Positions 34,097 through 64,000 of a DNA stretch of 64,000 nt are shown piece by piece; position 1 is the first letter of the stretch; the number at the start of each line of letters is the position of its first letter. Source of the DNA: Rhizophagus irregularis (taxonomy: Eukaryota); assembly GCF_026210795.1 (NCBI RefSeq), contig NC_089434.1:1488001-1552000 (forward strand), read 5' to 3'. The notes under the pieces are model-generated. The model was not told where the DNA came from, did no database searches, and saw nothing but the letters and a program-made list of their open reading frames with translations. The position numbers were made by a program, and so were the translations under genes.

Positions 34097-34429
34097 ATCT
34101 ATCTACTCATGATTTATAATAATTATGCCATAAAATTCATAAAATTTATTTTATATCCGTAAAATTAAAATTTCCATCAAATTATTTAATTTTTTTTTGT
34201 AGTTATTGTCGAAACAAATAAAAAGGTTACTATAAATTTTTTTTCTGATAATTTATATATTTAATAATTTGAATAAATTTATTATACAATTATTTAAATT
34301 ACAAACTAAGAAAATTGTAAAAAATTTTACTACTCTAGTCTTAATGTTTAAATAATTCAAAATAAACATAAATAATAAAAGATAGAAATTTAAAAATATA
34401 AAAAAATTGTTAATTTATCAAAAGATAAT

Positions 34430-36721
34430 TTAAAATCCATCTAAGGAATAAATAAATAACAGATAATAGTAACAGGTTAGTAAATAAAATAAATAAAATA
34501 TCGTAAAAATATAAGAATAATAAAGTAATTAAGAACTTACCATCAGGAATTTCAAATTCATCTTGTTCATTTGAATGAAGATTTGGATTATTATGTATAT
34601 CATCATCATCATCTATAAATAAATAAATAAATATAATATAATGTAATTAAAGTTAGCTATTATTATGTAAGATTTTGCTTACCATCAATATTAATATTTT
34701 GCTTTTTTGTTTGTTTTTGAGTTATTTCTTTTTCATCATCTAAATTTTTTAAATAAATGACGTGTTTAATAAATGAAATTAGTAATTTACTTACTATTTG
34801 AATTTATTTGCAACTTTTTAAATACTTTAGATAATCTTTTACTGCTACCTAAATTAGGATTTTGATTTAATATTAAATTCAAATTCAATTATTTCTAACA
34901 TATAATTCAAATAAATATTACCTTTAAAAATATTAATTATTTTCGATGATTTGCTACTATTCTGTTTATTTGACCCGTTAAAATCATTAACTGAAAACAA
35001 ATATTAATTTATAAACATTGTTATGAAAAAAATTCAACAATATAGCGTTAAATACTTACTATCATCAGGAATGTTAAAATCATATGATTTACTATGAAAT
35101 TCTATTATAAAAAATAAACTATTTTAATATTAAATTGTTGATAATTAAAAAATAGCAAAAAATTATTAATACCTTCTTGTTCTTCTATTATAATTAATTT
35201 TAATTAAGAAATAATAATGTTAATTTATTTTAAAATAAACAAAAAAGATTAATAAAATATTATACACTTATACCTTCTGTTGCATTTCTTGGTTCAGGTA
35301 GATTTTCAAAGTTGTGAATTTTACTTGTAAATAATCTGCTACTCGTATAATTTCCTTTTACTTTATTCATTTCTAAATTATCTATTTTTGATTGGAAAAA
35401 TTCATCTGACATATTTTGACAATCTATATTAAATCTTTGCATTTTTTTCTCAAATGTATAAATATCAGGCCTTTTTAATGGATCAGCATCCCAACATTGT
35501 ACCATTAAATTTTTATATTCTAATGGAGTTCCTGACACAATTTTTGGCCTTATACCATTAATAATGTTCATTGCAAGATCATAATCATGTTCATAATTTA
35601 TAAATGGTGGTTGTCCAGATGAAATTTCCCACATAAGTATTGCAATACTATAAATATCAGATGCAAAAGTACATTCCCTTCCAACAATAACTTCGGGTGC
35701 TATATAAGGAAGATTTCCATATATACTTGTTGATGATTTATTAGCAGGTCCACAAAATCCTAGATCACTAATGTCCCAAGCATCATTTAATTGTGAATAT
35801 AATATGTTTCCAGAATGCAAATCTCTATGAATTGCATTTTCACTATGAATATGATAAAGTGCAAGAATTATTTCATCAGCAATCCTAATTCTATCTTTCC
35901 ATGTAAGTTGATTATGATTTTGCTGTAAATATTTTCTTAAATCTATATCCCTTTTCGCTATTACAAGCATATAATTTCCATTTGATATATCTTGTGTCAA
36001 TCCATAACATCGAACAATTTCTGCCCATTTATTACTTATGGTTAAATGTGATTTAGCCTAAATGACATGTTATTTGTTATTATAAAAACTCCAAATTTTA
36101 TAAATAAATTTCAAATAAAATTATACAAACCTCTTCAAACCAACTTTGATTTACACTCTCAACATTTTCTAACCTTTTAAGTATTACTTCAAATGTTCCA
36201 GCTCTTTTTAATTGTTTTTTTTCAGAATCCCATTCATCATAACGTCCATTAATCCAGTCTGCTGTATAAATTTCAGAAAATCCACCTTTTGTTAAATATT
36301 TAATATTTATTAAATTGCTGTAAGGAATCCATTCAACTACCATATTTGGCATAAGTGTTTCCATTTGACATTTCTGTATTAATTTATCAATATTATCATT
36401 TCCGGATGTCCAATTTGAAAAATTTTCTATTAAATAATTTCGAACACATTTTTCACAATATAATGTAGCTAAACATTCTTGATTACAATTTTCACAATTT
36501 CTTTTTGTACCATCATTATGCATAATTTTATTTCGATCATAACTTTTAGTTAATAATCTTATTGCGTAAGTTTTTTCATTTTTTGTAAGACTTTTATCAG
36601 CAAGAACTGTTTGTTTTTGAAATTCAAATTGTTTGTGTATATCATTGTAAATATTAGTATCTAATAATGAAAGCGTCCTGTTATTTGCTGCATAAATTAA
36701 TTCATATCGAAGAGTGGACAT
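34430..36721 (-). CDS. TKL-like protein kinase, copy 2
   Basis: Intact kinase motifs (HRDLHSGN, DLG, APE); two large exons plus 3' micro-exons ending DGF*. Confidence 0.9.
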
Positions 36722-37008
36722 AATGTAATTAATAAATTAAAAGGAAAGAAAGAATTGTGTTTCAAGTTCGTTACTCCGAGATAAATTAGTAAATGCAAAT
36801 TGTTGATCAAAACTTGTACCACTCTTGTACCACCATGTGAATTTAAATTCTGTGATCAGTATTCGACGCTCAAATAAAATAAGTACGGTATTTTACAATT
36901 AATAGAAAACATAATCTGTGTGACAAACTTTATTTCTATACTTAATAAATAAATAATTTATTATTTGGTTCAAATTGATTAATATATTCTATTTAAATAA
37001 ACAACATA

Positions 37009-37430: not shown

Positions 37431-38406
37431 ATATTAAAACTCATTAAAAAATCGTACATAAAAAACAAATACTTGTAGTATCTTTTCTAAGAGAGTTAAA
37501 ATTAGGTTATAGTATTGCTTCTTGTTTATTTATTAAAAAAATAAACCATTTTGCTCCAAATAAACAATAAAAAAAAATATTTCATGCTTTTTTTTCTATT
37601 TGATTAAGAATAATTTTTTTTTTGTTTATGATTATATTGTTAAATATTTTTAAAATATATTGATTAAGTTTAAAGTTTCCAAATCTTTTTTTTTAAAAAA
37701 GAAATTATACTGTAAATTACTTATTGCGTTGTAATTTTTTTAAAACTCTGTATCATACAGGTATTTTTAACTTTTTTCTCACAAACTGCGACTCTAAGAA
37801 TTTAAGCTTTTAAAAAATAAAAAGCATTTTTAAATATAATTTTTTAAATGTTATTATATAAAGTAAATTATACTACGAAAGATGAATTAAATTAAGAACC
37901 AAGAATCTTGATATATTGTGTTTATTACGTGTATGTATGAAATCTTTTTGACGACGATATACAGTGCGCGCAATACAAAAGCGTTTGTTTGTCTTTGCTG
38001 TGCGTCTCAATCGTCTCATGTATAAATTACTGTAGCGATACAAAGTACAAAATCCTGATTGCTCAGAGAGTCGCCAGACCGGAGTAGGTTCTTAATCGAA
38101 TCAATCAAACTTCGATCATAAAATATTGGCCTCGATTAAAATCGAACTAGGTTTTGATCGATCACATTGATTGATCATGGAAATGTGATGAAAATTGAAA
38201 AAAAATCGATTGATCAACCAAGGTTTTTGGACCTGCAATTTCTCGAGGGTAATTTTTAGAATCAATTAAATACCATACGCTAGAGATCTTTTAATAGTTT
38301 AAGTAAAAAAAAAAAAATATTGACACATAAAAATTCATTCAGCTGAATATTTTTTGCACTTACTGATTTTGTTGTAGATTTTATTCCGGATTACCATTTT
38401 ATATAG

Positions 38407-38551
38407 TTATTGGGTAAGAAGTATTCAATATGAAGATTTATGACCGTCGATGTTAAATGATTGGCCGTTATTGTGCCACGTAGTGGCACAATGGCCAATC
38501 ATATAATGTTGATGGTCAAAATGGTAATATTGAATACTTCTTACCTAATAA
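38407..38551. repeat. 145-bp imperfect inverted repeat (hairpin), loop GTA
   Basis: TTATTGGGTAAGAAGTATTCAATAT..TGACCGTCGATGTTA.ATGATTGGCC..ATTGTGCCAC-GTA-GTGGCACAAT-GGCCAATCAT.TAATGTTGATGGTCA..ATATTGAATACTTCTTACCTAATAA. Confidence 0.95.
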
Positions 38552-38810
38552 TGATTTTATTGTGGCAGACCACCAAGATCATGTTTTAAAAGTTTATTTA
38601 AACTTTCTTTTAAATTTCAATTTTTACGCGTCTTTTTCTTTACGCGTTTAAAAGTTTATTTAAACTTTCTTTTAAATCCACTCATTTGTACACATTTTTT
38701 CTTTACGCGTTTTTTCTTTTACACATTCTTTTTTATATACACTTTTTAAATACCCTACTTTTTCTTTACACATTTTTTTCTTTCAACCTATTCTATTATT
38801 TATTTTAATA

Positions 38811-40438
38811 ATGAAGGAAAAAACTAACAAAAATAAAATAAATAATGATAAAGTATGTTGTTATTATTACCAAAATATTGTTATATTAATTTGCTAATAC
38901 AATATTTTCTATTCAAGTTTTATTTACCTACAGAAGACGAAATAAATTTTTTCAAAAAGAAGTCAAGAGTAGTAAATACAGATAAATCCACAGCAAATTG
39001 GGTTCACCAATTTGAAAACTTTCGTGAAAAAGCTGGATTTACTGGTAAAAGCATAGATATTACTGATAGAAAGGAATTAGAAAGTCAAATCTGTAGTTTC
39101 GTAACAGTTATGAAGACTAATTCTGGTGAAGAATACAAGGCTAGATCTATCCTCAGTGCTATACATGCATTAAACCGACATTTAAATGATTTATCATCAC
39201 TATCTCCAATGGATTTTACTTCAAGAAAACAATTTCCAATATTATATGATGTATTAGATGGCAAAATGAAACATGTAGCAGAACAAGGAAAGGCCAATGT
39301 TCAAGGAGCTGATGGTCTTTCTGTTGAAGAATGTAAAAAAATACTGTATTCACCAGTATTAAACATTGACACACCCACTGGATTGTTAAAAAAAGTCTTT
39401 TTTTTAAATGCATTATTCTTAGCTCTTAGAGGTGGTGAGCACTATTCATTACAATATTCTCATTTTAAGTTTAGAGCTGATGGTCAGGGTTTTGATGTAA
39501 ATATTCCTCGAAGTAAAACAAATCAAAGGGGTATTAATGGCTCATTAAATGATGAAAAATTAAGAATTCCATATCATCCAATGATAATGGAAACTTATAA
39601 CAAATATTTTTCTAAAAGACCAGGTAATGCCGATAAAGAATTCTATTTAAGAGAATATGTGTCTGAAGATGGTGAGTTCAATGTACTTTATCATTTTATG
39701 CTATTTTTTTCAGTAATATGACATTTATTAGTTAACTTATTTATTTATTTATAGATTATATTATTTATAATCGTTGGTTTCAAAAGTTTCATGTTGGTGA
39801 AAAGCGATTAAAAAATTTTTTACATGAAATTGTAATAGAATGTGGTATTGATATTGGCAATCGAAAGATCAGCAACCATAGCGCCCGAAAAAGTTTAGTA
39901 GGAATATTGAAAGAACTTGGTACTAGTGACAATGAAGTTATGGCAATTACCCGGCATAAATCAAATTCAGGATTTACTAGCTATGAAAGAACTAAAGAAA
40001 AAATGCAGAATGTTAGTTTAAACAACTTAATGAACGTTCTTATAGATAATGATCAAATGGAAGGCTCGGGTGAGTTTTAATTTTAATTTTTAAATTGATT
40101 TTCAATATACTAATTATACAATATGGAATTTTAGATGTTTTAGAACCTTTGCCACATTTTTCAATGCCAGATAAGCAAGCATTAACACCAATTGAACTTA
40201 AATCAACTTTTACTAGTGCACGCGAAATTTTTAAAGGTAATTTATTAATAGTTTGTTTTATTTTATTTTATTTTATTGATTTCTATTAATAAAATTAGCT
40301 GAAATCAATCAAGAAAGCCGAATTCCATTTTCTAACAAATCCAACAAATTGACAATAAATGAAACTGAAACTTTACAGGATATTTTTAAAGGAAACGGAT
40401 CAATTTTCAATAATTGTACATTTGTATTCAATAGATAA
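38811..40438 (+). CDS. Tyrosine recombinase, Crypton/DUF3504-type, apparently intact, 5 exons
   Basis: Exons 38811-38852, 38918-39671, 39755-40069, 40135-40236 and 40299-40438 splice in frame. Catalytic R (LALRGGEH), K (SKTNQ), HxxR (NHSARK), H (RHKS) and Y (FTSYER); C-terminal FNNCTF motif. Confidence 0.88.
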
Positions 40439-43400
40439 TACTAATATAGTTTAAGTAACAGTTTTTCAAATTGCTGTACAGTATTAAGCTAAACTAATGT
40501 AAATGATATTTGGTAAATGACGTAATGCGTTAGCAATATTGAGCGGAAATTAAATAACATGATCCTATAGGGATGCCCAATAAAAATTATTATGCGTCTC
40601 GAATTTCGTTTTTTTTTTTGGAAAGATTCGCTTTATAATTTCAGCAATTTATTGTCAGCAGTTCATTGAATTTAGTTCCTTTGACTAATATTAAATTTAC
40701 ATATGCAACTTATTTTTTTATTACTAATCAAATATAATAAAATTTTATACTTTAACTCTGAGTCAAATTTCGTTTTGTTGAGTTACAATTTCTTTCTTTG
40801 TAATTTACGTTCTTAAATTTTGATTTCGTAAATAATTATAATATTACCTTCTACTTTTATCTCAATGATGAATAGGTATTATAATAATAAAAAATTTTAA
40901 TTTTCAGTTTTAACTAAAACAAAAAAATTCACTTAAGTCACACCAAAAAAAAATCACGATTTATTACAATTTATTACATAATTTTATATAATTAGGAATT
41001 TTTTTATCCCTTCCGTTTGCAAATAAAACCGATCTTTAATATTTATTGCTTTCTTCTCATTCCCTTATCTACAAATTAGCATCAAAATATTTGTTTTTAA
41101 AATTTAAATATTAATGTTAAAAAGCAGCAATTCTACTCAAGTAATAAGAGTATTTATGTAGAAACTCAAATGAAATAAAATAAAATATTTATCAACAACG
41201 TAATTTTAAATGAGAAATATAAACTTATCAAAGTTTCAAATATTATGTTTATGAACAAAAAAATTAACTCCAAAAATCATACAAGTTAATTATTGGTATT
41301 CAAATTCTTACATTGGTTTATTATGATCGAAATTTATTTTATTAAGGATAGATTAAATCACTTTAATTAGTCAAATTGATTTTAAAAAGACAAAGAACGA
41401 GACCAAGAACTAGAAAATGCTGAATTAACTACGGTTTGGTCGGATTTTACTGACCACCGATATTTCTATATATTGAAATCAGTATTAATAGCATTAATTC
41501 CTATTGGACACCGTAGTATTCTTAATTGTCAGTTATTGTATAGAGATATCGATATCTCTATTCCTCCGTCCAATCATTTGAAAACATCATATCACAGAAA
41601 ACTGTTTTTCAGTAAATATTTTAATATTTTTCTACCATTAATTTACCTATAATGGTTAATTTCAGTTACAGTATATAGTATAATATTGAATTTTTTTTTA
41701 ACAGATATTTTACAAATAATTAACTCTCAATTGTAATTTAGCATAGATAAAAAAATTTTTTAAGTATCTTACCAAGAATAAATATAGATTGAATGATTAA
41801 CTGAGCTTCATAATGACGTATAAAATGAATTTTTATTATTCCTGACCAGATACCGTTTCTTTAAAGGAAAACTCGTTAATATATTAAATATTTAAATATC
41901 TTGTCAATGAAAGAATTATCAATACGCCACAGCTTATCATGACCTATTATAAAAACAATTATCTAAACGGATAAATGTCAACAGAAATATTTTACATTAT
42001 AGTTTGATTTTTTATTTTTATCAATGAATGGATTATAATTTAACTTTTTACATTTAAGTGTTTGACGAAATAAGCTTATTGAATGAAAATCGTAAATCTA
42101 GTTACCACCTGTCAATTCTCAGTTTGATAAATTCTTTCATGTGAGGATTTGCTTTTTGACAAAAATAGGGAATTATGATATTTATAAAATGGTAAAACAT
42201 TTAACCTGGTTCTAGTCGATAGATCAAATGAAACACAACATTGTCTTAACGTACACTTTAATCTTAACTTTGGGTTTCATTGTATTCCTGATAAACTATT
42301 TCAATATAAACCACAAGCTTTATCTATATATTATAATTTTATTATGACATAAAAAGTATATTAATACAGTAATAGTTAAATAAAATCATCCATAGAAAAA
42401 TTTAATTTGTACGTAAGCATAATTATCTTCAGTTGGGAGAATCTCATGATTGCCAATAGCTTTTGGTACTTTATCACGAAAATTTTATTACGTGTATTTT
42501 ATTGGACCGATATAGTATTTTAAGTTTATATCGTATTACTTAGTTATTTAAAAAGGTTTTAAATTCATTTCAAAAAACTCTATTTAGGTTTTTAATAATT
42601 GTATGGGATACTTAATTAAGCTATAATATAGCTTGCGTTAATATAATTAAAAATATCTAAAATAGATAAATAAATTATAATGTGAGAAAATATATCATAT
42701 AAATTTATTAAAAAATATTATTATATAGTGTTTACAATTTTAATCATAATATATTCATTTAAAATTACTTTTTTATTTCACAAATCACATTAAATTAATA
42801 TGAACTTTGAAATTATAAATATAAGAAATATAAGAATGTAACAAAACATAATAATTTTATATCATATGAAAATATAAGTATTTAGATTATAATTAAAGAA
42901 TTTCAAGATACATAATACCTTGCAATTCAAATTTTTTTTAAAATATTAATATTATTTTAATTATTCAAAATCCATCTTAAAATTCATTATTATTAGATAA
43001 AAACAATAACATTTATTAACTAAAGAATCAACAATTTATTAATATATTTTCATTATCATAAGTCTTTCGCTCGTATCACGCACATGCAAAATTTACTTTA
43101 CTATAAATAATAACAGCAAAAATATATATATATTTTTTTCAAAAAAAAAATTGTCTTTAACAAATGTTATCCAAATAAACTAAGTTATAAATATGATAAT
43201 GGAAAATTAATGATGCAGTAACTTTTAACTTTATTAAGTTTATTTAAAATCAAAAAATCAAACTCGAAAATTAATTCCTAATATTCAGCAAAACCAAATA
43301 TTTAATGAAATACGCTTTTTATAGTATTACCGTTACGTAATATTTTAATTTCGTAGAACCATACACTGTAACTAGTAGCGATATACAAAATTTATAGAGA

Positions 43401-45162
43401 TTCATAAAATTTTTATGATTTGATTGATAAATTTACAACTTAAAATATTTGAATTGTTATTACTAAAAAATTTACATATACAACAAGAATGTCTTCATTT
43501 ACAATTCTATACCAAATTAAATCTAATGATTAGATGGTTTATCAATGGTTTAGTATATTATATGTTTGAAACCTGGAAATTTAAGATTTTTTCAATTGTA
43601 GAGTATTAATGCTATTTTTATTATTTATTATTATTGAATATAGATACTCATCAAAAAATGCAATCCAAAACATTAAATATTTTCATAATTTCTGGCTATA
43701 ATAAAATTTTACCTATAAATAAAAAAATATATATTCTTCAAATTCAGAAAGATTTCTTGTTAAGTCATTATTGCCTAAGGTAATCTATAAAATAAAAAAT
43801 ATGATAAAAATATATTAGAAGACTCGAGTACTCTAAGTAAGCTTTGTAGAAAAGACAGATTCAAGCCCCCATGCCTACTATCAACTGACATTAACGATAT
43901 ATTGTGAGTGATCAAACTCGTGCAGAGGTACTGTCACATTGATAATAAGACATGAGACCCACCACACCAAAGGGAAGGGCCCCACATACAGAAGTCTGCG
44001 ACATAGCTTGAGATATTATTATTTTCTCATTTAAGGTAACCAAACTTCTAGAAGAGGAGGATAACCAAAGCACTCTAGGTGCACAAATCCCTTATACATC
44101 CCAGCTTAGTCATTTCCACTTACCAAAATAATAAAAACCCCAAGATATTTATCATGTTTAAATAGAAATCTTCTAAAGTCTTTTACAATAACAAAAGTCT
44201 TATATGTATTTAATAAATAAAAATATAAGTTTGAGAAGTTATACTATAATAGATATTATATTAAAGAAATATAGCAAATATTGTATTAAAAGAAGACAAA
44301 AGTAAATTAAAAGGGAAAAAATTTTGAAAGTTAAAAAGTCTAATGAGAAAAAAAGTGACTTTATAAATAATTTTTCATGGGAAAATCATTAAAATCAGTC
44401 AAATCAGTCATTGTGATTAGTATGATGTAAGATTGTTTACGCGTTATACTGTGCACTAGGGAATTACGCGTATTGATCACGTTGGTTAATATTAATTAAG
44501 TACTTACTCTCACTCTTAAAGTTGAACTTAATCATAAAAATGAAAATTAAAGGTAATAGATGAACTCAACTTCAAAATAGAGTAAATATACATTTGTAAC
44601 TTTTTTTTTTCAATAACACATAATAAATTTCTTTATCAAGCATTTTTTGTTAACGGGTTGTCATAATTCTAATAATAACGAAAAATATTTTCACTTAATA
44701 TATTAATTGAATGAAAAACTTACCTTTTTTGTAATCTCTCGAGTTGTCAAAATTTCTTATGTGCGATTAGCTTTATATATAATGCTGGTTTTATTATTAG
44801 AATACAGTTAGTAACTTTGTCCAAAAAAATCTTATATCTAAGAGTTAGAGTATCAATTCTTTAATGTTATGAGATATAATTTACATTATTTTGGTAACGT
44901 AATTCCTCAATCCACAGATACCCAATAAATATATTATCCACTAAAATGAAAAAAATTCAAATATCAATAAACGAGAATCAAGAATTTATCAACACTTTGC
45001 AAAATGAGACGATGTTGTATACATTAATCTCGTAATTTTTCGCACGTGGTTATCTATCAATTTTATTAATCACGGTCGGTCTCTTATTAATAACTGGAAA
45101 ACCAATTCAATAATCATTTTTTAAAATTTTATACTTAAGATGTTTAAAAGTTTTTTTATTAT

Positions 45163-45312
45163 ATATTATTGTATAGGGGAGGAGCAATATCACTTATTTT
45201 AGTATAGGTCAATGTATGATTGGTTTTAATTTTGCCACGTCAGTGGCAAAATTAGTAACCAATCATACATTGACCTATAAAATAAGTGATTTTGCCCCCT
45301 GTACAATAATAT
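45163..45312. repeat. 150-bp imperfect inverted repeat (hairpin), loop GTCA
   Basis: ATATTATTGTATAGGGG..ATCACTTATTT..TATAGGTCAATGTATGATTGGTT.TAATTTTGCCAC-GTCA-GTGGCAAAATTA..AACCAATCATACATTGACCTATA-AAATAAGTGAT..CCCCTGTACAATAATAT. Confidence 0.95.
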
Positions 45313-47201
45313 TATTATCGTTTGGAACTGACCATAACATTTAAAAGCTTAAAAAAGTTTATTTAAAAGTTTAATTTTTTACTGTTTATATTGAAAAAAT
45401 GATTTACAAATTATGCTTTTTTCTCTTGCTGACTCTTTAGTATTTTTATAATAATGCCACCACAAAAATCTCAAAAGTAATATTTATTTGTATTCATTCA
45501 GTTAATATTTTATTTTATTTTTTTTTTGCATTTTATTAAAGATTTTTTTTTAGAATAAAAAAACTTTCACATATATGGCCCCTACTGAAGAAAAAATAAA
45601 AAGTATGCAAACAGCAGCTCGTGGCAAAGCTACACATAATTCTACAAGTACTTGGACTAATGCACTTGAAACTTTTCGTAAGTATATTGGATTACCTGGA
45701 AAAATAGATGATGTGAATTCTAAAGAAGAGTTAGAGCGTCAACTTGTTTTATTTTTTGTTTCATGTAAGCAGCAAAATGGAGCTGAATATTCAGTACAAT
45801 CAATAAAATCAGCAAGATTTGCTATTGCACGACATATCAACACATATTCTAAAATTCGTCCACAAGAAATTACAAATAAAAATATATATTCTGAATTATA
45901 TAACGCAATTACTGGCAAGATCAAACTTTTAACTGATTAGGGATTAGGTGAAATACATGGTGCAGATGCTTTTACTCAAGATGAGATTAGGAAAATTATT
46001 AATCATCCCACAATGCAACCAGATTTACCAAAAGGACTTATACGACACATATTTTGGCATAATACTTTTGAATTAGCTCTTCGAGGTGGAGAGCATTATA
46101 ATCTAAAGATACAACAATTTAAAAAAAGAAAGGATGGTGGTATTGACGTTACATTTTATAGATCTAAGTGTAATTAGAGATCTTTAAGTGAATCTAATTC
46201 TAAAGCTGAAGTAATTTCAATACCTGCTGATAATGCTGTTATTCAAGATTATGAGCTTTATTTTAGTAAAAGACCACCAATTTGTGAAGATGCATTTTAC
46301 TTGCAACCTTGCAACAATAATGAAGGTAATTATTTATTATGTAGTAAATTATTATTTTTTTTACCTTTCTTTTAATTTCAAATAGTTGAGTTTACAGGTT
46401 ATTGGTTCAAATCTGCTCAAATGAGAGGAAAATCGGTAAAAGGACTTATGAAAGAAATTGCAACATTAACTGAAATCGATTGTGATAAAAGAAAGTTCAC
46501 AAATCATAGTGGACAAAAAACCTTAATTCAAATTTCAAAAAGTGAAGGAATTAGTGATAATGATGTGATGTCTGTGTCACGGCATAAAAATCCTCACTCT
46601 TTGGCTTATTATGAACGTCCCAAGTCTATATTGCAGCAAAATACATTATCGCAAATTAATTCTTTAATTTATAATGGTAAGAAAAGAATTGCACCTGTGG
46701 TTTTAATGTAAAAGTAATATACAATATATTTATTATTTTTCTTTTCATTAGATACATTATTGTCAAATGACAAAAACTGCAAATTCTTTTTCTTCAGCCT
46801 TAGAAATTTTCAATGGTAAGATTTAAATTATGAACTAATAATTCTTATGGTATAAAAAATTTTATTTTTTTTTAGAATCACGGTCACCACTTCAGCAGCT
46901 CAACTCAAATGATTTAAACGAATTAAATGATGATCAACAAAATCAAGAAATTAACGGAAATGATGAGACCATTAAAAAAATTCTCCATGGGAATGTTTTT
47001 CAGAATTGTAATATTACATTTAATGTGAATAAATGATTTTTATACGAATTTTATTATATGTACACTTATAAATAGCTTATTTTAATAATATAAAGTATAA
47101 ATAGTTTATATAAAGTATAAATGGTTTATTATGATATTATAAAGTATAAATAAAATATCTAAAAATATAGTATGTTATGATCATATGTACCTGAACGATA
47201 A
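45166..47201 (+). mobile_element. Crypton-like tyrosine-recombinase element 2 (hairpin module plus TIR-bounded YR module)
   Basis: Hairpin 45163-45312; TIR-L 45314-45340; YR pseudogene; TIR-R 47172-47202. Confidence 0.8.
45454..47036 (+). pseudogene. Crypton/DUF3504-type tyrosine recombinase pseudogene
   Basis: LALRGGEHY, RSKCN*R, NHSGQK, RHKN, AYYER and FQNCNI motifs; in-frame TAG at 45938 and 46175; intron layout equivalent to element 1. Confidence 0.85.
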
Positions 47202-49096
47202 TTGCTTTTATTGCAACTTTTATCTTAAAAGCACTAATTACAAATATAATGATTATTATATAATAAAGTAATTCATTAAGGAAAATAAGAACAGAGTTTC
47301 CAATAGCATATCTAACATTATGAAAATTTAATATGTATTATAAATTTTATAACCAAAAGGATAACATTACTAGCCCTATTCCGCACGTTATCTAACTGTT
47401 TCCTTTATAGCTAAGTTTATCATTTTGTAGCAAAATCGCATAAATTTTTACCAAATATTCTTTAAGATTAAATCTTTTTTATTCAAGTATTTATAATATC
47501 ACTTGAAATTTTTTCCCATAAGACTATAAGGTTAGATTTTATTGTAACAAGTATTAGACGTATTAGACATCAATATTGTACAAATCTAGAAATGTTGAGC
47601 GAAATACTTAAACATCGTCAATTAGCTAAATTTTGGCAGTATTTCTTCATAAATTAGTTTGCGTCCCTTTTTTTTGTCTTATAAATAAAAATATCTCAGA
47701 AGCCTTAAATTATATATGTATATATATATATATACAGTACTTATATCTGCTACTATATTCTTTAAAAAAAATTAAGTAAAAAAGCTTTTATTTATGTTTT
47801 AATGGCGTTAAAACAGCAAAAATTAGTACCGCAAATTTTCCATTTTTTCCATTTTTTTATTTGGAATTTTCCAACTTTTTGATTTTTCAAGCTAAATAAC
47901 TTCGCAAAAATCAAATTTGAAGCTTTAAAATATACTGCATCGCCCTAAATTACATATTCTGAATATAATACAAAGTGTTTATTTTTAGATTATTAAGTTT
48001 AAAATGGGGTTTCAATTAGCGTATTAGCAATTAAATAATAAAACAAATGATGATTGGCAAATTAGTAATCTATAATTAAGATATCCTACCAGATATTACT
48101 GTATCACCCATAAAATGAATTAATTAGTTTTAGTCTAATATAAATTATATAGTTAAATAGGTCAGTTTCGGATTGTAGATCTGACGACATTATATCTGGT
48201 AAAGTTTGATCTTCCCGCCCTTTTTTCTTTTCTTTTTTTGTTCAAGCTATGCTTTATTGTATATTATATTAAACCATCATGAAATGATCGATTTGGAAGA
48301 ATTATAAAAAAAAAGAAATAGTATTGTTTTAAAAAACATACTAATTTGATACTATATATGATAGTAGCAAGATACAGTATAATCAGATTACAAAATATCA
48401 AGGTTCATCAAATATAAGGCATGATTTGAAATACAAATCTTAAGATATCATAAATATAAGATAACTCTTAATTTGTTGTCTAATTAAAAATTTTTTCTAA
48501 TCATACATAATTAAAGTTTTGTCTTAACGAATAATATAATTACAATAATATTTTGTAACCGATAAATTTTCATCTTCATAAATAGTCAATAGATATAAAA
48601 TCTGTAATATTAAATATTATTATTCAAAAATTTTTGTAATTAAATAAATTTAGAGTCAAAATCTCAAAAATTGATATATGGTTTTGGATACAACATATAA
48701 TTCTTTTAAACTTCAGTTAAGTTTCGCAAATAATTAAAAGATTTATGATATCTGCTGAACATGTCAATAGCTAGAAAATCAGTTTCAGCAAATGTGTTCG
48801 GTTACAATGGTATGAGATGAAATAGACAAATGATTCGAATGATCAATTCTCAAGTACCAAATGTGATATTAATTATGGCTTTTTTATTTAAAATCATATG
48901 GTAAGTTATCAACCAATCAAAATGAAATGATTATGAAATTAAGCAAATCCTTTAAATGGTTAAATGACTAAACACTGTAGAAAATAACTAGAAATATCAG
49001 AATAATCATAGATAAAATCAGTATTGTATTGTATAATTGTCTCAAGAATGGGTTTTTTTTTAATATTATACCCGTCATGTGAATCACTAAAAATTT

Positions 49097-49271
49097 CTGA
49101 TTATCAATGGAGAATTATGGAATCAAGAATAATACTTTTTTTTCCCCTGATTATCAATGGAGAATTACGGAATCAAGAATAATTCTTTTTTTTTCCTGAT
49201 TATCAATGGAGAATTACGGAATCAAGAATAATTCTTTTTTTTTTCTGATTATCAATGGAGAATTACGGAAT
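49097..49271. repeat. Tandem repeat, ~49-50 bp x 3.5, just upstream of the F-box gene
   Basis: Units CTGATTATCAATGGAGAATTACGGAATCAAGAATAATTCT(n) start at 49097, 49147, 49196 and 49245. Confidence 0.9.
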
Positions 49272-49336
49272 TATGAATCACAGTATACAGTACATGCCAA
49301 TGCAAATCTCCCTCTCCTCTTCATTCTTCCTCTAAA

Positions 49337-50755
49337 ATGTCTTTACCTATTTTAAATTCAGATATTATTCTTGAGATTATCAAGAATTCAAAAGATAATA
49401 CGGGTAGTTTATTTAACTTTCTTTTTGTAAATAAATATTTCAGTAAAGTAGCTGTATCAGTTCTCTGGGAAAATCCATTTAAATATCGTAATTTATTAAG
49501 TAGGGACAGTCAAAATTATTCGATCATACAAACTTATATTAACTTTTTTAATGAAGAGGAATGTAATGAAATCAACCAAATCTTTAAAAATATTAATGAA
49601 GTCTTTAAATTTAATAATGAACAAGAAAAATCACTTCGTTTTCATTATGGAAAATATTTAAAAGAATTTAATTTTCAAGTTACAAGGAAAGCAATAGATT
49701 CATGGTATAGTATTTTTAAAGAAAAGAATAATATAAAAAATGGTAGTTCACGTTATAATATTGAAGAATGTATCATGAAATCAATTATGAGACAATGTCA
49801 AAAATTAGATTCCTTGAATTGGGGGATATGTTTAGTGAATGAAGGTTTATTAAAAATTATGCAAGATAAAATTAAGGATTTGAAATATTTTACAATAGAT
49901 CATTATTATAGTATTAACTATGAAAAAAGTATTTTTGGTTATTTAAAAAATCACTGTAAAAATATTTCATGTTTAACAATAGATGATTATCATGATATAT
50001 GTGGTGATAAACTTACAGAAGAATTTATTTCTTTTATTGAATTACAAAATGGTCTAAATGAATTCATCCTTGATCATGCGGAAGAAGAATATGAGTATAA
50101 AGATCTTATCACAAGCACATTAGAATTTCAAGCTAATAATTTAACTAAAGTGATATTAAATGGAGTGGATTTTAGCGATATATCATTTGATTATATTGAC
50201 AAGTGTATTAATTTAAAAGTATTAGGATTAAGATATAACAAAGGGTTAATATTTGATGATATGGATTTATATACTTCATTTAAAAATCTTAAAATATTGG
50301 ATTTAAGTTATAATGAATGGTCATCTGAAGTAACTACTTTGATTATTAAGAAAGCAGGAAAGAGTTTAACTTCTTTGACAATTGGAGAAAATAATATTAA
50401 ACAAGCAATTAATGATGATACTTTAATTGCTTTGACAAATTCTTGCCCAAATATTCGTTCATTATCAATTTCCAAAACTTCTAGTGAAAGCATTAAAATG
50501 GTTCTATCATATCTTAAAGATTTGAAATTAGTTACTTTACAATTATTTCAAATTGAAAAAAAAGGTACAGTTATGAAATCTGAAGATCTGTTGAATTACA
50601 TAGAAAATGAAAAATCTCTATTTAAATTGGGATTAGGTAAAAATGACAAGTATTGGGATTATTATAATGAAAGACGTAGAAATTTTGAAAAATTTTTGAA
50701 AAAGCATAATGTTAAGTTGATCGCATATAAACCAAAAAATAACAACGTATTATGA
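49337..50755 (+). CDS. F-box / RNI-like LRR protein, single exon
   Basis: LNSDIILEII..SLFNFLFVNKYFSKVAVSVLWENPF F-box start, followed by LRR-like repeats (LKILDLSYN, CPNIRSLSI). Confidence 0.85.
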   Translation: MSLPILNSDIILEIIKNSKDNTGSLFNFLFVNKYFSKVAVSVLWENPFKYRNLLSRDSQNYSIIQTYINFFNEEECNEINQIFKNINEVFKFNNEQEKSLRFHYGKYLKEFNFQVTRKAIDSWYSIFKEKNNIKNGSSRYNIEECIMKSIMRQCQKLDSLNWGICLVNEGLLKIMQDKIKDLKYFTIDHYYSINYEKSIFGYLKNHCKNISCLTIDDYHDICGDKLTEEFISFIELQNGLNEFILDHAEEEYEYKDLITSTLEFQANNLTKVILNGVDFSDISFDYIDKCINLKVLGLRYNKGLIFDDMDLYTSFKNLKILDLSYNEWSSEVTTLIIKKAGKSLTSLTIGENNIKQAINDDTLIALTNSCPNIRSLSISKTSSESIKMVLSYLKDLKLVTLQLFQIEKKGTVMKSEDLLNYIENEKSLFKLGLGKNDKYWDYYNERRRNFEKFLKKHNVKLIAYKPKNNNVL

Positions 50756-51920: not shown

Positions 51921-52557
51921 CCTACATTCTTTCATCGGTTATCGTTTGTATTCTAATTATTTCTTTAGGTCTTTATAACTTGTTTCTTGTTTCTACTTTG
52001 TTTACAAGTCAAATTATATGTTGTGATTGTTAACCTTCTATACCTGTTTGGCTTATATTGAGGGTGTAGACCTCCCGACCTCCCGTGCCTGCTTGGTTGC
52101 CTTTCAAAGTACCAAGATGGTGTAAAAAAAAGGTGTCAGGTGGCACAGTAAATTTGTGCTGGCACTATGCTATAATTCTAGCCAATCTTTTGGGCACATA
52201 ATTGCGCCCATTCATTTGTTAAAACAATCTTTTGAAATAAAGATCAACTATAAAATATCAATCACCTGATTGATAGCTATAAAAATTTCTTTTATTTTAT
52301 ATTCGGAAAATTAAAATTTCCATCAAATTATTTAATAATATTTCTTGTAGTTTTACTAAAAAATTTGTTTTTACTGATAATTGTATATTTAATAATTCAA
52401 ATAAATTTATTATACAATTATTTAAATTACAAACTAAGAAAATTGTAAAAAATTTTACTGCTCTAGTCTTAGTGTTTAAATAATTTAAAATAAATCATAA
52501 ATAATAAATGATAGAAATTTAAAATATAAAAAAATTGTTAATTTATAAAAAGATAAA

Positions 52558-54868
52558 TTAAAATCCATCTAAGGAATAAATAAATAACAGATAATAGTAA
52601 CAGGTTAGTAAATAAAATAAATAAAATAGTAAAAATAAAGAATAATAAATTAATTAAGAACTTACCATCAGGAATTTCAAATTCATCTTGTTCATTTGAA
52701 TGAAGATTTGGATTATTATGTATATCATCATCATCTATAAAAAAATAAATAAATAGAATTAAAAATGGTATTAATGTTAACTATTATTATGTAAGATTTC
52801 GCTTACCATCAATATTAATATTTTGCTTTTTTGTTTGTTGTTGTTGAGTTATTTCTTTTTCATCATCTATATTTTTAAATAAATGGCGTGTTTTAATAAA
52901 TGAAATTAATATAATAGCGACTTAATTTGTTTGTAATTCACTTACTATTTGAATTCATTTGCAACTTTTTAAATACTTTAGATAATCTTTTACTGCTACC
53001 TAAATTTGATATTAAATTCAATTTCAATTTATTATTTCTAACATATAATTCAAATAAATATTACCTTTAAAAATATCAATTATTTTCGATGATTTGCCAC
53101 TATTCTGCTTATTTGACCCGTTAAAATCATTAACTGAAAACAAATATTAATTTATAAACATTGTTATGAAAAAAATTCAATAATGTAGTGTTAAATACTT
53201 ACTATCATCAGGAATGTTAAAATCATATGATTTACTATGAAATGCTATTATAAAAATAAATTATTTCAATATTAAATTGTTGATAATTAAAAAAATAACA
53301 AGAAATTATTAATACCTTCTTGTTCTTCTATTATAATTAATTTTAATTAAGAAATAATAATGTTAATTTAATTTAAAATAAACAAAAAAGATTAATAAAA
53401 TATTATACACTTATACCTTCTGTTGCATTTTTTGGTTCGGGTAGATTTTCAGCAAATTGATGAATTTTACTTGTAAATAATCTGCTACTCGCATAATTTC
53501 CTTTTACTTTATTCATTTCTAAATTATCTATTTCTGGTTGAAATGATTTATCTGACATATTTTGATAATCTAAAATAAGTCTTTTCATTTTGGTCGCAAG
53601 TGCGTCAGCATCAAGTCTCTTTAATGGATCAGCATCCCAACATTGTATCATTAAATTTTTATATTCTAATGGAGTTCCTGTCACAATTTTTGGCCTTATA
53701 CCATTAATAATGTTCATTGCAAGGTCATAATCATGTTCATAATTTATGAATGGTGGTTGTCCAGATGAGATTTCCCACATAAGCATTGCAATACTATAAA
53801 TATCAGATGCAAAAGTACATTCTCTTCCAACAATAATTTCAGGTGCTATGTAAGGAAGATTCCCATATATACTTTTTGATGATTTATCTGCAGGTCCACA
53901 AAATCCAAGATCACTAATATGCCAAGAATCATTAAATTGTGAATATAATATATTTCCAGAATGCAAATCTCTATGAATTGCATTTTCACAATAAATATAA
54001 TAAAGTGAAAGAATTATCTCATAAGCAATCCCAATTCTTTCTTTCCATGTGAGTTGATTATGATTTTGTTGTAAATATTTTCTTAAATCTATATCCATTT
54101 TCATCATTACAAGCATATAATTTCCATTTGATATATCTTGTGTCAATCCATAACATTGAACAATATCTGGCCATTTATTACTTATGGTTAAATGTGATTT
54201 AGCCTAAATGAAAACATGCTATTGTTAATAGAAGAAATATAAATTTTTAAATAAATTTCAAATAAAATTATACAAACCTCTTCAAACCAACCTTGATTTG
54301 CACTTTTAACATTTTCTAACCTTTTAAGTATTACATTTTCATCTCCAAATCTTATTAATTGTTGTCTCTTAGAATCCCATTCATCATAACTTCCATTAAT
54401 CCAGTCTGCTGTATAGATTTCAGATAATCCACCTTTTGTTAAATATTTAATATTTTTTAAATTACTATATGGGATCCATTCAACTATCACATTTGGTCTA
54501 ATTGTTTCCAATTGACAATTCTGTATTAAATCATCAATACCATCATTTCCAGACGTCCAATTTGAGAAATTTTCTTTTAAATAATTTCGAACACAATATT
54601 CACAATATAATGTAGCTAAACATTCTTGGTTACAATTTTCACAAATTCTTCTTGTACCATCATTAAGCATAACTTTATCTCGATCATAATTTTTAGTTAA
54701 TGACCTTATTGCAAAAGTTTTTTCTTCACTTGTAAGAATTTTATCAGCAAGAAGTATTTGTTGTTGGAACACAAATCGCATATGTATATCATTATGAATA
54801 TTAGTATCTGTTAACATTACTATTCTATTCTTTGTTGCATAAATTAAATCATATCGAAGAGTGGACAT
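52558..54868 (-). CDS. TKL-like protein kinase, copy 3
   Basis: Same exon structure and kinase motifs as copy 2. Confidence 0.9.
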
Positions 54869-55024
54869 AATGTAATTAATAAATTAAAAGGAAAGAAAGA
54901 ATTGTGTTTCAAGTTTGTTACTCCGAGATAAATTAGTAAATGCAAGTTGTTGATCAAACTTGTACCACTCTTGTACCACCATGTGAATTTAAATTCTGAG
55001 ATCTTAAGGCGCGGCAGTACCGAC

Positions 55025-55618: not shown

Positions 55619-56542
55619 CGACGCTCAAATAAAAAATGAGTACGAAATTAATACTTGTGTGACAAAATCTTTCTCAATAATTAATACTAGTATTTATTAT
55701 TTTATTTCATATTGATTAATATTTTATTTTGACGAAACAAAAAAATCTAAACTTTCGAAGTGATTGTGTCTTTAATAGATTAAATTAATTAATTGTATTA
55801 TTTAAAATTAACAACATATCGAGTAACGGATATTAGAAATTATAAGAAGCCATATTCAAGTTAGAAAGGAACTTTAGTAGAACCATCATTTCTTTTTTTG
55901 TAATTATGGATTACGATTAAATTAAATATATAACTTGATATAAGCAAATTAAATAATAAATGAAAGAAATCATTACGTTGAGATTTAAGAATTTAGTATG
56001 TAGTAACTTCACAATAATAACATTTCTGTTCAATCTAAAATTGCAATTAATTTTTTTAAAAATGTTAGTGACTTAATGTAGTGATATATATTCAGAAATT
56101 TTTATACGCGCAAAATGTAAATTAGCCTTGAAAAATTTTATGCAATCATATGTGAGAGTAAATAATTATAGCGGCAATTAATCATTGGGCTAAAACAAAA
56201 TCTTTTGAAATAAAGATTATCACCTGGTTGTTAGCTATAAAATTCCTTTCATATTCGGAAAATTAATATTTTCATCAAATTATTTAATAATTTTTCTTGC
56301 AGTTTAATACTGGATAGAACAAATAAAAATCGTTACTATAGAATTATTTTTTACTGATAATTTATATAGTATTTAATAATTTGAATGAATTTATTATACA
56401 ATTATTTAAATTACAAACTAAGAAAATTGTAAAAAATTTTACTACTCTAGTCTTAGTGTTTAAATAATTCAAAATAAATTATAAATAATAAATGATAGAA
56501 ATTTAAAAATATAAAAAAATTGTTAATTTATAAAAAGATAAT

Positions 56543-58893
56543 TTAAAATCCATCTAAATAACAGATATCATAATAGTAACAGGTTAGTAAATAAAATAAA
56601 TAAAATATAGTAGTAAAAATAAAGAATAATAAAGTAATTAAGAACTTACCATCAGGAATTTCAAATTCATCTTGTTCATTTGAATGAAGATTTGGATTAT
56701 TATGTATATCATCATCATCATCTATAAAAAATAAATAAATAAATAGAATTAAAAATAGTATAAAGTTAACTATTATTATGTAAGACTTCGCTTACCATCA
56801 ATATTAATATTTTGCTTTTTTGTTTGTTGTTGAGTTATTTCTTTTTCATCATCTAAATTTTTAAATAAATGATGTGTTCAATAAATGAAATTAATATAAT
56901 AGCGACTTTATTTGTTTGTAATTTACTTACTATTTGAATTTATTTGCAACTTTTTAAATACTTTAGATAATCTTTTACTGCTACCTAAATTAGGATTAAT
57001 ATTAAATTCAGTTTCAATTTATTATTTCTAATAATATATATATATATTATAATTCAAATAAATATTACCTTTAAAACTATTAATTACTTTTGATGATTTG
57101 CTACTATTTTGCTTATTTGACCCGTTAAAATCATTAACTGAAAACAAATATTAATTTATAAACATTGTTGTGAAAAAAAATTCAACAACTGAATGTAGTG
57201 TTAAATACTTACTATCATCAGGAATGTTAAAATCATATGATTTACTATGAAATGCTATTATAAAAAATAAACTATTTCAATATTAAATTGTTGATAATTA
57301 AAAAATAACAAAAAATTATTAATACCTTCTTGTTCTTCTATTATAATTAATTTTAATTAAGAAATAATAGTAATGTTAATTTATTTTAAATAAACTAAAA
57401 ATAAATAAGCTAAAAAGATTAATAAAATATTATACACTTATACCTTCTGTTGCATTTCTTGGTTCAAATAGATTTTCAAAATTGTGAATTTTACTTGTAA
57501 ATAATCTGCTACTTGTACAATTTCCTCTTACTTTATTCATTTCTAAATTATCTATTTCTGATTGAAATGATTTATCTGACATATTTTGATAATCTAAAGT
57601 AATTCTTTCCATTTTGTCCTCAAGTGCATAAACATCAAGTCTTTTTAATGGATCAGCATCCCAACATTGTATCATTAAATTTTTATATTCTAATGGAGTT
57701 CCTGGCACAATTTTTGGCCTTATACCATTAATAATGTTCATTGCAAGATCATAATCATGTTCATAATTTATAAATGGTGGTTGTCCAGATGAGATTTCCC
57801 ACATAAGCATTGCAATACTATAAATATCAGATGCAAAAGTACATTCCCTTCCAGCAATAACTTCCGGTGCTATATAAGGAAGATTTCCATATATACTTTT
57901 TGATGATTTATCAGCAGGTCCACAAAATCCAAGATCACTAATAAACCAACGATCATTAAACTGTGAATATAATATATTTCCAGAATGCAAATCTCTATGG
58001 TTTGCATTTTCACCATGAATACGATAAAGTGCAAGAATTATTTCATAAGCAATCCCAATTCTTTCTTTCCATGTAAGTTGATTATGATTTTGTTGTAAAT
58101 ACTTTCTTAAATCTATATCCATTTCCATCATTACAAGCATATAATTTCCATTTGTTGGATTTTGTGTCAATCCATAACATTGAACAATTTCTGCCCGTTT
58201 ATTACTTATGGTTAAATGTGATTTAGCCTAAATGACAACATGTTATTGTTAATAGAAAAAACATTAAATTTTTAAATAAATTTAGAATAAAATTATACAA
58301 ACCTCTTCAAACCAACTTTGATTTGCACTCTCAACATTTTCTAATTTTTTAAGTATTACATTATTATTTTTCAATCTTATTAATTGTTTTTTTACAGAAT
58401 CCCATTCATCATATTCTCCATTAATCCAATCTGCTGTATAAATTTCAGAAAATCCACCTTTTGTTAAATATTTAATATTTTCTAAATTACTATATGGGAT
58501 CCATTCAACTACTTTACTTGGCATAAGTGTTGCCATTTGACATTTCTGTATTAAATTATCAATATCTTCATTACCAGATGTCCAATTTGAAAAATTTTCT
58601 TTTAAATAATTTCGAACACAATATTCACAATATAATGTAGCTAAACATTTTTGGTTACAATTTTCACAAATTCTTCTTGTACCATCATTATAAAAAATTT
58701 TATTTCGATCATAATTTTCAGTTAAATCTCTTATTGCTTCAGTTTTTTCTTCACTTGTAAGAATTTTATCAGCAAGAAGTGTTTGTTGTTGGAACTTAAA
58801 TCGTTTATGTATATCATTATGAATATTAGTATCTGTTAACATTATTATTCTATTCTTTGTTGCATAAATTAATTCATATCGAAGAGTGGACAT
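56543..58893 (-). CDS. TKL-like protein kinase, copy 4
   Basis: Same exon structure and kinase motifs; start MSTLRYE at 58893. Confidence 0.9.
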
Positions 58894-60006
58894 AATGTAA
58901 TATAAATTAAAAGGAAAGAAAGAATTGTGTTTCAAGTTCGTTACTCAGAGAAAATTAGTAAATGCAAATTGTTGATCAAAACTTGTACCACTCATGTACC
59001 ACCATGTGAATTTAAATTGAGATCTTAAGGCGCAGTACCGACGCTCAAATAAAAAATGAGTACGGTATTTTTTAAATTATTAAAAAACATTTGTGTGACA
59101 AAATCTTTCTCAATAAATTAATAGTATCTATTATTTGATTTCATATTGATTAATATTTTATTTTGACGAAACAAAAAAATCCAAGCTTTTAAAGTGATTG
59201 TGTCTTTAAACGATTAAATTAATTAGTTGTATTATTTAAAATTAACAACATATCGAGTGATGGATATTAGAAATTATAAGAAGCCATTCAATTTATTATT
59301 TTCTTTAAAGAAGCCATATTCAAGTTAGGAAGGAACTTTAGAAGAACCATCATTTCTTTTTTTGTAATTATGGATTACGAATAAATTAAATATATAATTT
59401 GATATAAGCAAATTAATAATAAATGAAAAAAATCATTACATTGAGATTTAAGAATTTAGTATGTAGTAACTTCACAATAATAGCATTGCCGTTTAGTAAT
59501 CTATAATTGTAATTAATTTTTTAAAAACTGTTAGTGACTTAATGTAGTGATATATATTCAAAAAATTTTATACGCGCAAAATGTAAAGCCTTGAAAAATT
59601 TTATGCGGTCATATGTGTGAGTAAATAATTATAACAGCATCCATTCATTGGGTTAAAACAAAATCTTTTGAAATAAAGATATACTTTAAAATATCAATCA
59701 CCTGGTTGATAGCTATAAAATTTTTTTTATATTCGGAAAATTAAAATTTTCATCAAATTATTTAATAATTTTCTTGACTGGGTAGAACAAATAAAAATCG
59801 TTACTATAGAATTTTTTTTACTGATTATTTTATATATTTAATAATTTGAATAAATTTATTATTCAATTATTTAAATTACAAACTAAGAAAATTGCAAAAT
59901 ATTTTACTACTCTAGTCTTAGTGTTTAAATAATTTAAAATAAATTATAAATAATAAATGATAGAAATTTAAAATATAAAAAAATTGTTAATTTATAAAAA
60001 GATAAT

Positions 60007-62319: not shown

Positions 62320-64000
62320 AATGTAATATAAATTAAAAGGAAAGAAAGAATTTCGGTGTTTCAAGTTCGTTACTCCGAGATAAATTAGTAAATGCAAATT
62401 GTTGATCAAAACTTGTACCACTCCTATACCACCATGTGAATTTAAATTCTGTGATCTCAAGGCGCAGTATCGACGCTCAAATAAAATGAGTACGGTATTT
62501 TTAAATTAATAGAAAACATAAATCTGTGTGACAAAAACTTTCTCAATAAATTAATAGTATTTATTATTTGATTTCATATTGATTAATATTTTATTTTGAC
62601 GAAACAAAAAAATCTAATCTTTCAAAGTGATAGTGTAAATTAGTAATTAATTGTATTATTTAAAATTCAATATAAATATGACTGGTAAATTAAGAAAAAA
62701 TTCATCTTTTTGGATATTTTCAATTGAATTTATTCAATAAACAACAACATATCGAGTAACGGATATTAAAAATTATAAGAAGCCATTCAATTTATTATTA
62801 AACCATATTTAAGTTAGAGAGGAACTGAACTTTTGTAGAACTATCATTTCTTTTTTTGTAGATATGGATTACGAAATAATGATTTGAATTAAAAATATAT
62901 AATTTGATAAAAGCACATTAAAAATTAAATGAATGAGAAAGAAACCATCACTTTGAAATAAATAAACGTAGTAAGCTTCAGTACGTATGGAATGTACTAG
63001 TTCCATTATAGTCGGTATTACTGTTTAATAATAATGTTGTTTCCCAATTAATAAATTTCAATTTAACGTTACGGAAAAATTAAAAATTATTCTTTCAGAA
63101 AAATAATCATAAGCTTCTAAAACTTATTTAAATGATTTGGTAAATACAAACGTCGAATGTAAGTCTAACCTAATTTAATTACATAAATTAGTCATTTAAG
63201 AATAAACAAAATCATTGTTTAAAAAAATATAGATTAAATAAGTGTTAAGCCTCAAAAGGGTGTAAATAATAATGAATCTTATTATTATACTTGGTCAGTT
63301 ACCATTTGATACTTTTGCTTCTTTAAAAGACAAAACCATCGACGTTTTTAATTTTTATATGTTTTATCGATAAAAAAAAAAGTTTAAAAAATACTTGCAA
63401 TGTTTATCAATCATAATAGGATAAGAATTTTGTTGTGCGCAAACGATAATTAATTGCTAGCTTAGCCTTTTTAATGATATAATAAATTGAAAAGCAAATG
63501 AGCGGTAGTCATTAATTTATAAATAAATAATCATCAGATTTTTTAAAAAAAATATTTTGTATTAAATTTTTTTTTGATAATGATATGGTTAAATATTTAT
63601 TGATGTTTCATAATAAATCTATATGTTTTTTATAATTAATTTTTCATCCAAACTTATAATAATAGCCATAGTAACTATCACATTAAAGTTTTTGAGTTTC
63701 TACATTTAATAATTTTTAAAAACGTGACCTTAAATTTTTAATCAACTCGTCAAGTCTCACAATGAGTAACCAGATTTTATCTAATGAGATCGATAAAACA
63801 AATGATTATGCCTATTACGAATCTATACCCACCAATGATAGGGTCGAGTTGATTTAAGTATTATTATTCATCAAGACATCAGGATATTTCACATATGCAT
63901 AATCTTCCATAAAAACAATAAACTGAATTTCAATCATATTTTCATTTTCTAAAATTAAACAAGATACAAGAGAAATTCATATTTATATTTATATTACCAT

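Follow-up and report, generated by a model that had tools for sequence, protein, structure and literature searches.

Long hairpins of fixed layout form the left ends of YR transposons in Rhizophagus irregularis

The window, which is the whole 64,000-nucleotide stretch of Rhizophagus irregularis contig NC_089434.1 that was analyzed (positions 1,488,001 to 1,552,000, forward strand), has a GC content of ~24% and includes kinase arrays. Two long hairpins on the + strand, hairpin 1 (38407..38551) and hairpin 2 (45163..45312, arms A and A′), are each followed, in the same orientation, by a tyrosine-recombinase (YR) gene that contains introns. The ~2.1 kb elements that are opened by these hairpins, each with one DUF3504 YR gene, are designated E1 and E2, respectively. 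The YR gene of E1 (38811..40070, +) was read as three exons, with more 3′ exons probable, and includes the full set of R-H-R-Y catalytic residues (R, H-x-x-R, H and Y). The gene of E2 (45454..46680, +), for which the start and small exons are predicted, possesses two in-frame stops (45938 and 46175) and a Q in place of the second catalytic R (46515). At these three positions, the bases with most of the depth in the runs are C, C and G, which corresponds to intact codons, and other copies of the element have R at the latter site. No other long ORF was found in E1 or E2, and reverse transcriptase and RNase H are absent from both.

The main exon of the E1 gene scored 24.7 bits against DUF3504 (PF12012), which is under the 29.7 cut-off, and the domain is split by an intron in this gene. 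The equivalent exon of L040, a metagenomic relative described below, scored 34.1 bits, and the C-terminal exon of E1 gave a weak Phage_integrase match. The pieces of the E2 gene matched DUF3504 weakly, but are 38-39% identical to the E1 protein. PF12012 was detected in six of 17 homologs of E1. All of the species-named homologs (15 of the 17) are from Glomeromycota, the closest named proteins being those of Rhizophagus, Cetraspora and Gigaspora. A structure model of a truncated YR homolog was poor (pLDDT 59.8, pTM 0.47) and was set aside. The available text of the Glomhopper description, which counts about 1,800 copies in 72 genomes, similarly portrays elements with a single intron-bearing DUF3504 YR gene that has the catalytic residues, in regions rich in kinase arrays (PMC13465315). 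That text reports no common intron positions, whereas the intron that splits the YR domain is found at corresponding places in E1, E2 and L040 (38918-40070 and 45575-46680 in the window). Judged by their gene sequences, E1 and E2 are assigned to the Glomhopper subfamily of CryptonA in Glomeromycota.

Hairpin 2 folded as DNA with an energy of -60.1 kcal/mol (z -17.8; 0/200 shuffles) and hairpin 1 with an energy of -48.8 kcal/mol (z -17.8). The conserved core of hairpin 2 (45216..45266, +) consists of ATGATTGG, 9 nt, TGCCAC, the loop GTCA (45239-45242), GTGGCA, 10 nt and CCAATCAT; that of hairpin 1 is at 38457-38502 with the loop GTA at 38480-38482. An initial annotation of the locus proposed that the two hairpins share this core, and the full pattern ATGATTGG-N7-12-TGCCAC-N3-4-GTGGCA-N3-12-CCAATCAT indeed occurs at exactly these two places in the window; the ~4e-12 matches expected from base composition overstate the significance as the pattern was built from these two copies. 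A covariance model search revealed no third copy in the window. The near-equal lengths that were noted also hold, but the values of 145 and 150 are replaced by 145 nt for hairpin 1 and 144 nt for hairpin 2 when measured from base box to base box. The assertion that the outer arms differ completely is correct for the 44 nt that separate base box from core and align at shuffle level (218/500 score as high), but not for the arm ends: both hairpins start with TTATTG and finish with (C/T)AATAA. Moreover, the metagenome copy L024 partly bridges the two sets of arms, with 3/500 shuffles as high for E2 against L024 as the best of five cross-family comparisons of this kind. The TTATTG box that opens arm A of hairpin 2 (45166..45171, +) is invariant in 7/7 hairpins and is a putative YR half-site.

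The ends of the elements were mapped by aligning contigs, which are the form of the data, from four runs to 37500-47500. One contig per run in 4/4 runs joins 45148 to 47200 (among 15 of 89 joints listed), which represents the empty site of E2. The joint has 52 letters on its shorter side, and the identity of the letters between was not read. E2 thereby spans 45149..47199 (+), with the left end within 45149-45161 and the right end at 47199-47201. As the contigs skip 45149-47199, hairpin 2 lies 14-17 nt within the left end. Thus, hairpin 2 is the left end of a ~2-kb YR transposon, which the initial annotation overlooked; the recombination boxes are likely to be at the base of the hairpin, opposite a segment that repeats the right end in inverted orientation. 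E1 represents a second family. Single-copy contigs stop at 38425-38426 and resume at 40556-40561, and a multi-copy contig stops at 40585; from these breaks of single-copy into multi-copy contigs, and from 31-letter words that place the common span at ~38397-40585, E1 is estimated to occupy 38397..40585 (+). Overall, the hairpins begin 10-17 nt inside the left ends. Contig depth over E1 and E2 was ~6-10x that of the flanks, which is taken as a hint only. A 1131-nt multi-copy contig of E1 showed no differences in two runs, and the E1 copies are apparently young and intact. The elements are mobile and multi-copy: the empty site was seen in 4/4 runs and one family is inserted at three different left flanks. 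A clear terminal direct repeat was not found at the element ends, where only AT-rich matches at chance level occur. The trinucleotide TAT is at +8 to +10 past the right end in 4/4 right flanks, which might point to a target resembling the half-site, but this is a post hoc observation with no mirror image in the left flanks and was not counted. Tandem TATAAAGTATAAAT-like units are present at 47080-47150 just within the right end of E2. Upstream of this element, a short GC-richer stretch at 43846-44179 had the top contig depth in all four runs and is probably a fragment of a high-copy repeat.

Immediately beyond the hairpin is a segment of ~28 nt, termed B, that is an inverted copy of the right end, B′. 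B begins five bases past the hairpin in 4/4 elements for which both ends were available. In E1, B (38557..38585, +) follows the 5-nt spacer and is matched by B′ at 40556..40583 (+). In E2, the corresponding segments are at 45315..45340 and 47172..47201 (both +). The inverted matches in L040 and L024 place B′ at 2704-2731 and 898-927 of these contigs, respectively. When the following 4000 nt were searched, the best inverted match of B ended at 40583 in E1 compared to the contig-defined end at 40585, and at 47201 in E2 compared to 47199-47200. The chance that a B′ match falls within +-5 nt of the contig-defined end is ~0.003 for each of E1 and E2. The scores for B with B′ were equaled by six, six, ten and none of 300 shuffles for E1, E2, L040 and L024, respectively (Fisher p ~6e-5). 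The scores by themselves are modest; the E1 and E2 matches are within 2 nt of ends that were found independently. B and B′ agree at only ~70-80% of positions and do not match in the middle.

The layout is therefore A-loop-A′, 5 nt, B, gene, B′, and it follows that A′ plus B repeats, in inverted orientation, the sequence made by joining B′ to A. The end of A′ faces the start of B over 5 nt in 4/4 families. In E2 this internal site (45304..45320, +) reads CAATAA, a 5-nt spacer and TTATCG, and is predicted to be a complete YR site. A TTAT(T/C)G-like box is present on all four arm ends, other than the B segment of L040 that has ATATCC, and these boxes are candidate YR half-sites. In 4/4 elements, putative binding boxes are present as two inverted pairs that could come together as a single folded site. 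Compared with the average for 200 interior controls, joining the ends in silico deepened the fold by ~10-13 kcal/mol; no control was as good in any of the four elements, but this gain follows from the B/B′ repeat and is not independent evidence. The authors of the Glomhopper description could not define boundaries or repeats, and its available text contains none of the terms 'hairpin', 'palindrom' and 'stem-loop' (PMC13465315, 2026). In contrast, both ends are defined here, and the A-loop-A′-B...B′ arrangement provides this transposon family with the boundaries that were missing from its first description.

Scanning both strands of metagenome contigs with a half-pattern produced 47 loci. Five that are AT-rich (L021, L024, L035, L040 and L041) all possess the full hairpin, with the core retained in these further members of the family, as the initial annotation had anticipated. 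The remaining 42 are chance half-motifs with a GC content of 0.36-0.68, no CCAAT arm, no YR and weak folds. L035 and L041 have a common flank, so the five matches correspond to four loci. A YR gene is located downstream of the hairpin in L040. In L021, L035 and L041, the element stops or is broken no more than ~200 nt away from the hairpin, and L024 (718-926, starting on the - strand) is a gene-less element of 357 nt with the full hairpin, B and B′ that represents a fourth family. The expected association of the core with YR genes is thus evident for both window copies and for L040, the sole match that is long enough and not gene-less. L021, L035 and L040 are common in sequence from 10 nt ahead of the hairpin and diverge further left, and this divergence point confirms the left end independently. 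From ~1179, L035 departs from the L040/L041 sequence at TA followed by CAGTGG, probably due to insertion of another transposon. Searches of viral contigs for a relative of the YR yielded two pattern matches with a single protein and 17 with an alignment, none of which was confirmed, and no match to the hairpin motif; in prokaryotic genomes, none of 41 pattern matches was confirmed.

The arms retain their structure despite sequence change. Across seven hairpins from four families, 23 of 64 pairs change on both sides, compared to 0/500 shuffles and 3-11 in slid controls, counts that are inflated by relatedness (four of the seven sequences are near-identical) and by uncertain alignment of E2 and L024. 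L035 and L040 differ at four of 141 hairpin positions, which constitute two exactly compensated pairs. The hairpins also bear strand-specific structural marks. In a bias-free arm alignment with one copy per family, the ratio of G.T to A.C pairs on the + strand was 5:0, 2:0, 2:0 and 2:0 for E1, E2, L040 and L024, respectively, giving a sum of 11:0 (p ~0.001) from which L035 and L041 (2:0 each) and the decayed L021 (6:2) were left out. The two G.T pairs that had been assigned to the + strand of hairpin 2 were recovered in this analysis with no A.C pair, and the preference for this strand extends to the other families. Unpaired bases numbered 20 on arm A compared to two on A′ in the four families. 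The loops are C-GNA-G or C-GNNA-G in all seven hairpins, with GCA in the five metagenome copies and GTA and GTCA in the window; the loop was left free in the search, and a G..A loop occurred in 0/42 chance matches. Among 64 triloops, GNA is the only type that forms a DNA mini-hairpin and its RNA form is much weaker, as set out in the accessible text of PMC13037366. The isolated mini-hairpin requires two G.C pairs according to the same text, and here the pair beyond the C.G closing pair is A.T. The hairpin has one orientation relative to B in 6/6 loci (p 0.03) and in 4/4 families (p 0.125).

From the observed element span, layout, covariation, strand asymmetry and loop type, we infer a course of folding, cleavage and circle formation to which we assign roughly even odds: the + strand of the hairpin end would fold as single-stranded DNA into a double-stranded site that is cut by the element's own YR. 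The + strand, which is the non-template strand of the YR gene, would be unpaired at a replication fork or displaced by transcription of that gene, and the stable C-GNA-G loop would nucleate its folding. Pairing of A with A′ and of B′ with B would then build the recombinase site. Cleavage by the YR at the boxes followed by a single strand exchange would join B′ to A and release a single-stranded circle, and the other strand would template repair such that copy number can rise. The copy number of an active Crypton rose even though its excision was clean (10.1101/2022.05.23.493040), and single-strand exit with template repair would fit this gain. The ~220-nt fold-back of the circle would serve as the attachment site and recombine with an AT-rich chromosomal site by single strand exchange, and integration would be resolved by replication, as with CTXphi attP(+). 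Retention of the whole layout by the gene-less L024 counts in favor of this mechanism. Against it, the 10-17 nt ahead of box A are unexplained, ~10 nt of which are common among copies whereas the empty site of E2 leaves 17. Given these nucleotides ahead of box A, the joined ends may lack the neat 5-nt spacer that was assumed in the joined-end fold. RNA folding, or deamination of a non-template strand, also gives rise to G.T bias, and L021, a decayed copy, shows 6:2. Furthermore, the DNA energies of hairpin 2 are nearly equal on the two strands (-60.1 on + and -59.1 kcal/mol on -), the outer closing pair is A.T, B and B′ are mismatched in the middle, and the evidence derives from four families and seven sequences only. 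A Rep or helicase that might generate single strands is not encoded by the element. The wider proposal that CryptonA-type and other eukaryotic YR-only transposons move via a folded single-stranded DNA circle, with A-loop-A′-B-gene-B′ as an overlooked general end signature, is more tentative and we lean somewhat against it.

The main rival is excision and integration in double-stranded form, as in the Goodwin model, in which the boxes are duplex sites for the YR or accessory proteins and the YR gene is driven from the hairpin, a palindrome that may form a cruciform and carries CCAAT-like and CCACG promoter sites in pairs. The core motifs are read, presumably, as CCAAT-box and bZIP-type sites. 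The spacing from ATGATTGG to TGCCAC on arm A is 9 nt in 7/7 copies but in only 7/42 chance matches, as for a composite factor site, while that on arm A′ varies from 5 to 10 nt. The distance from apex to predicted start codon is ~215 nt in E2 and 212 in L040, but ~330 nt in E1. The core was also compared to the ER-stress element ERSE, which is CCAAT-N9-CCACG, and was rejected as such: ATTGG is 11 nt ahead of CCACG in place of CCAAT and CCACG 9 nt apart on one strand. Bacterial SE elements recombine one strand and yet have double-stranded circles in the available account (PMC10214605), which suits the duplex alternative. However, this explanation does not account for 70-bp arms that are kept by compensatory change, for the asymmetry of the G..A loop or for retention of the hairpin in L024, and overall we regard it as unlikely, though a serious competitor. 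A promoter function is separable from it: the fixed-spacing CCAAT-like and CCACG core is likely to be the element promoter as a second role alongside single-strand folding.

A device for priming or for regenerating ends is less probable again. A single-stranded circle might have its second-strand origin at the apex, or fold-back synthesis with A′ plus B as template might rebuild the ends, a role put forward for the internal complementary region (ICR) of DIRS elements, the complementarity of which is the same in the text available (PMC8969392). Single-strand origins of phages carry mini-hairpins (PMC13037366, accessible text), and the arms of near-identical copies change in concert. Nevertheless, the persistence of bulges and G.T pairs and the differences in the middle of B and B′ imply that the ends are not recopied every cycle, and no reverse transcriptase or primase is encoded; this proposal is, moreover, compatible with the folded-strand explanation instead of exclusive of it. 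That the hairpin acts as RNA, either as a 5′ leader or as the precursor of small RNAs by which the element is silenced, appears quite improbable. RNA folding of the + strand was better than that of the - strand by 7-19 kcal/mol in 7/7 hairpins, and G.U pairs would fit, but GUA, GCA and GUCA are not GNRA loops and the hairpin begins so close to the element end (10-17 nt) that an upstream promoter has no space. In addition, no Rfam match was found within 38300-47300, and an RNA role leaves B and B′ unexplained. Last in likelihood, and hardly credible, is a protelomerase-like target, a rolling-hairpin end or an invertible segment in the style of 2-micron. The location of a YR gene beside a long palindrome is in keeping with these possibilities and a circle would hold two inverted sites. 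Protelomerase targets have a symmetric palindromic center, and rolling-hairpin or flip-flop mechanisms flip the hairpin. Here, in contrast, the center is a non-palindromic loop of 3-4 nt (GTA, GCA or GTCA, 7/7), 6/6 loci are in one orientation when both strands were searched, and the element is an integrated one for which an empty site exists; the protelomerase-type apex entertained in the initial annotation is thus not upheld.

The single-strand folding mechanism can be placed beside characterized systems, in each case as far as the available text of the cited sources extends. Cryptons and animal CryptonA also are ~2-kb YR-only elements with short non-autonomous derivatives (PMC3212892, PMC8969392). 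In these sources CryptonA are described without terminal repeats and Cryptons with only short direct repeats of 4-6 bp at both termini, none of which is clear here. CTXphi attP(+), formed from attP1 and attP2, likewise arises when YR boxes, arranged as two inverted pairs, fold within a single strand and leave an overlap unpaired (PMC3442271). As in the integron attC site (PMC3053210), the strand in CTXphi is set by asymmetric bulges, and the sequence is variable whereas the structure is kept. In contrast, both systems are bacterial, and CTXphi employs host XerC/D, single strands from its own relaxase and the dif target (PMC3442271), whereas folding and single-strand exchange are conjectural in the fungal elements. 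DIRS elements resemble these in that they, too, are YR elements with an internal region, the ICR, whose sequence complements the beginning of the left end and the finish of the right one, but DIRS are retroelements with a reverse transcriptase and a 3′ ICR, whereas no reverse transcriptase is present here and the complementary stretch is right after the left arm (PMC8969392). Helitron2 ends also combine a terminal hairpin with asymmetric inverted repeats, but differ in the HUH Rep-helicase, repeats of 8-15 bp and short hairpins (PMC3627910). No description of the present end layout was found in the open-access text of the Crypton literature. The family is already described, and the end structure is new relative to the open-access text searched.

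How Cryptons move and gain copies is a still-open question in the field. For Glomhoppers, whose description had no ends, the layout is a rule by which full-length and gene-less copies can be delimited. It also names candidate recombinase boxes, by which the mechanism becomes a simple oligonucleotide test. The apparently intact E1 copies provide candidate substrates and might also be used for gene delivery into transformation-resistant fungi. If true, the folded single-stranded circle would give eukaryotes an equivalent of CTXphi and integron recombination.

Additional repeats are evident elsewhere in the window. A sequence at 22176-22334 with inverted arms of 46 nt (87% complementary) and internal GCCGAAA units was considered as a relative of the YR hairpins and is unrelated; it looks like a miniature inverted-repeat transposon. 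Repeats of ~42 nt are arranged in tandem at 49094-49278, just upstream of a leucine-rich-repeat ORF (49277-50755). Five protein-kinase gene units that are 78-90% identical are located at 24974-27513, 34139-37004, 52208-55024, 55619-59243 and 59039-62667, three of which are in tandem.
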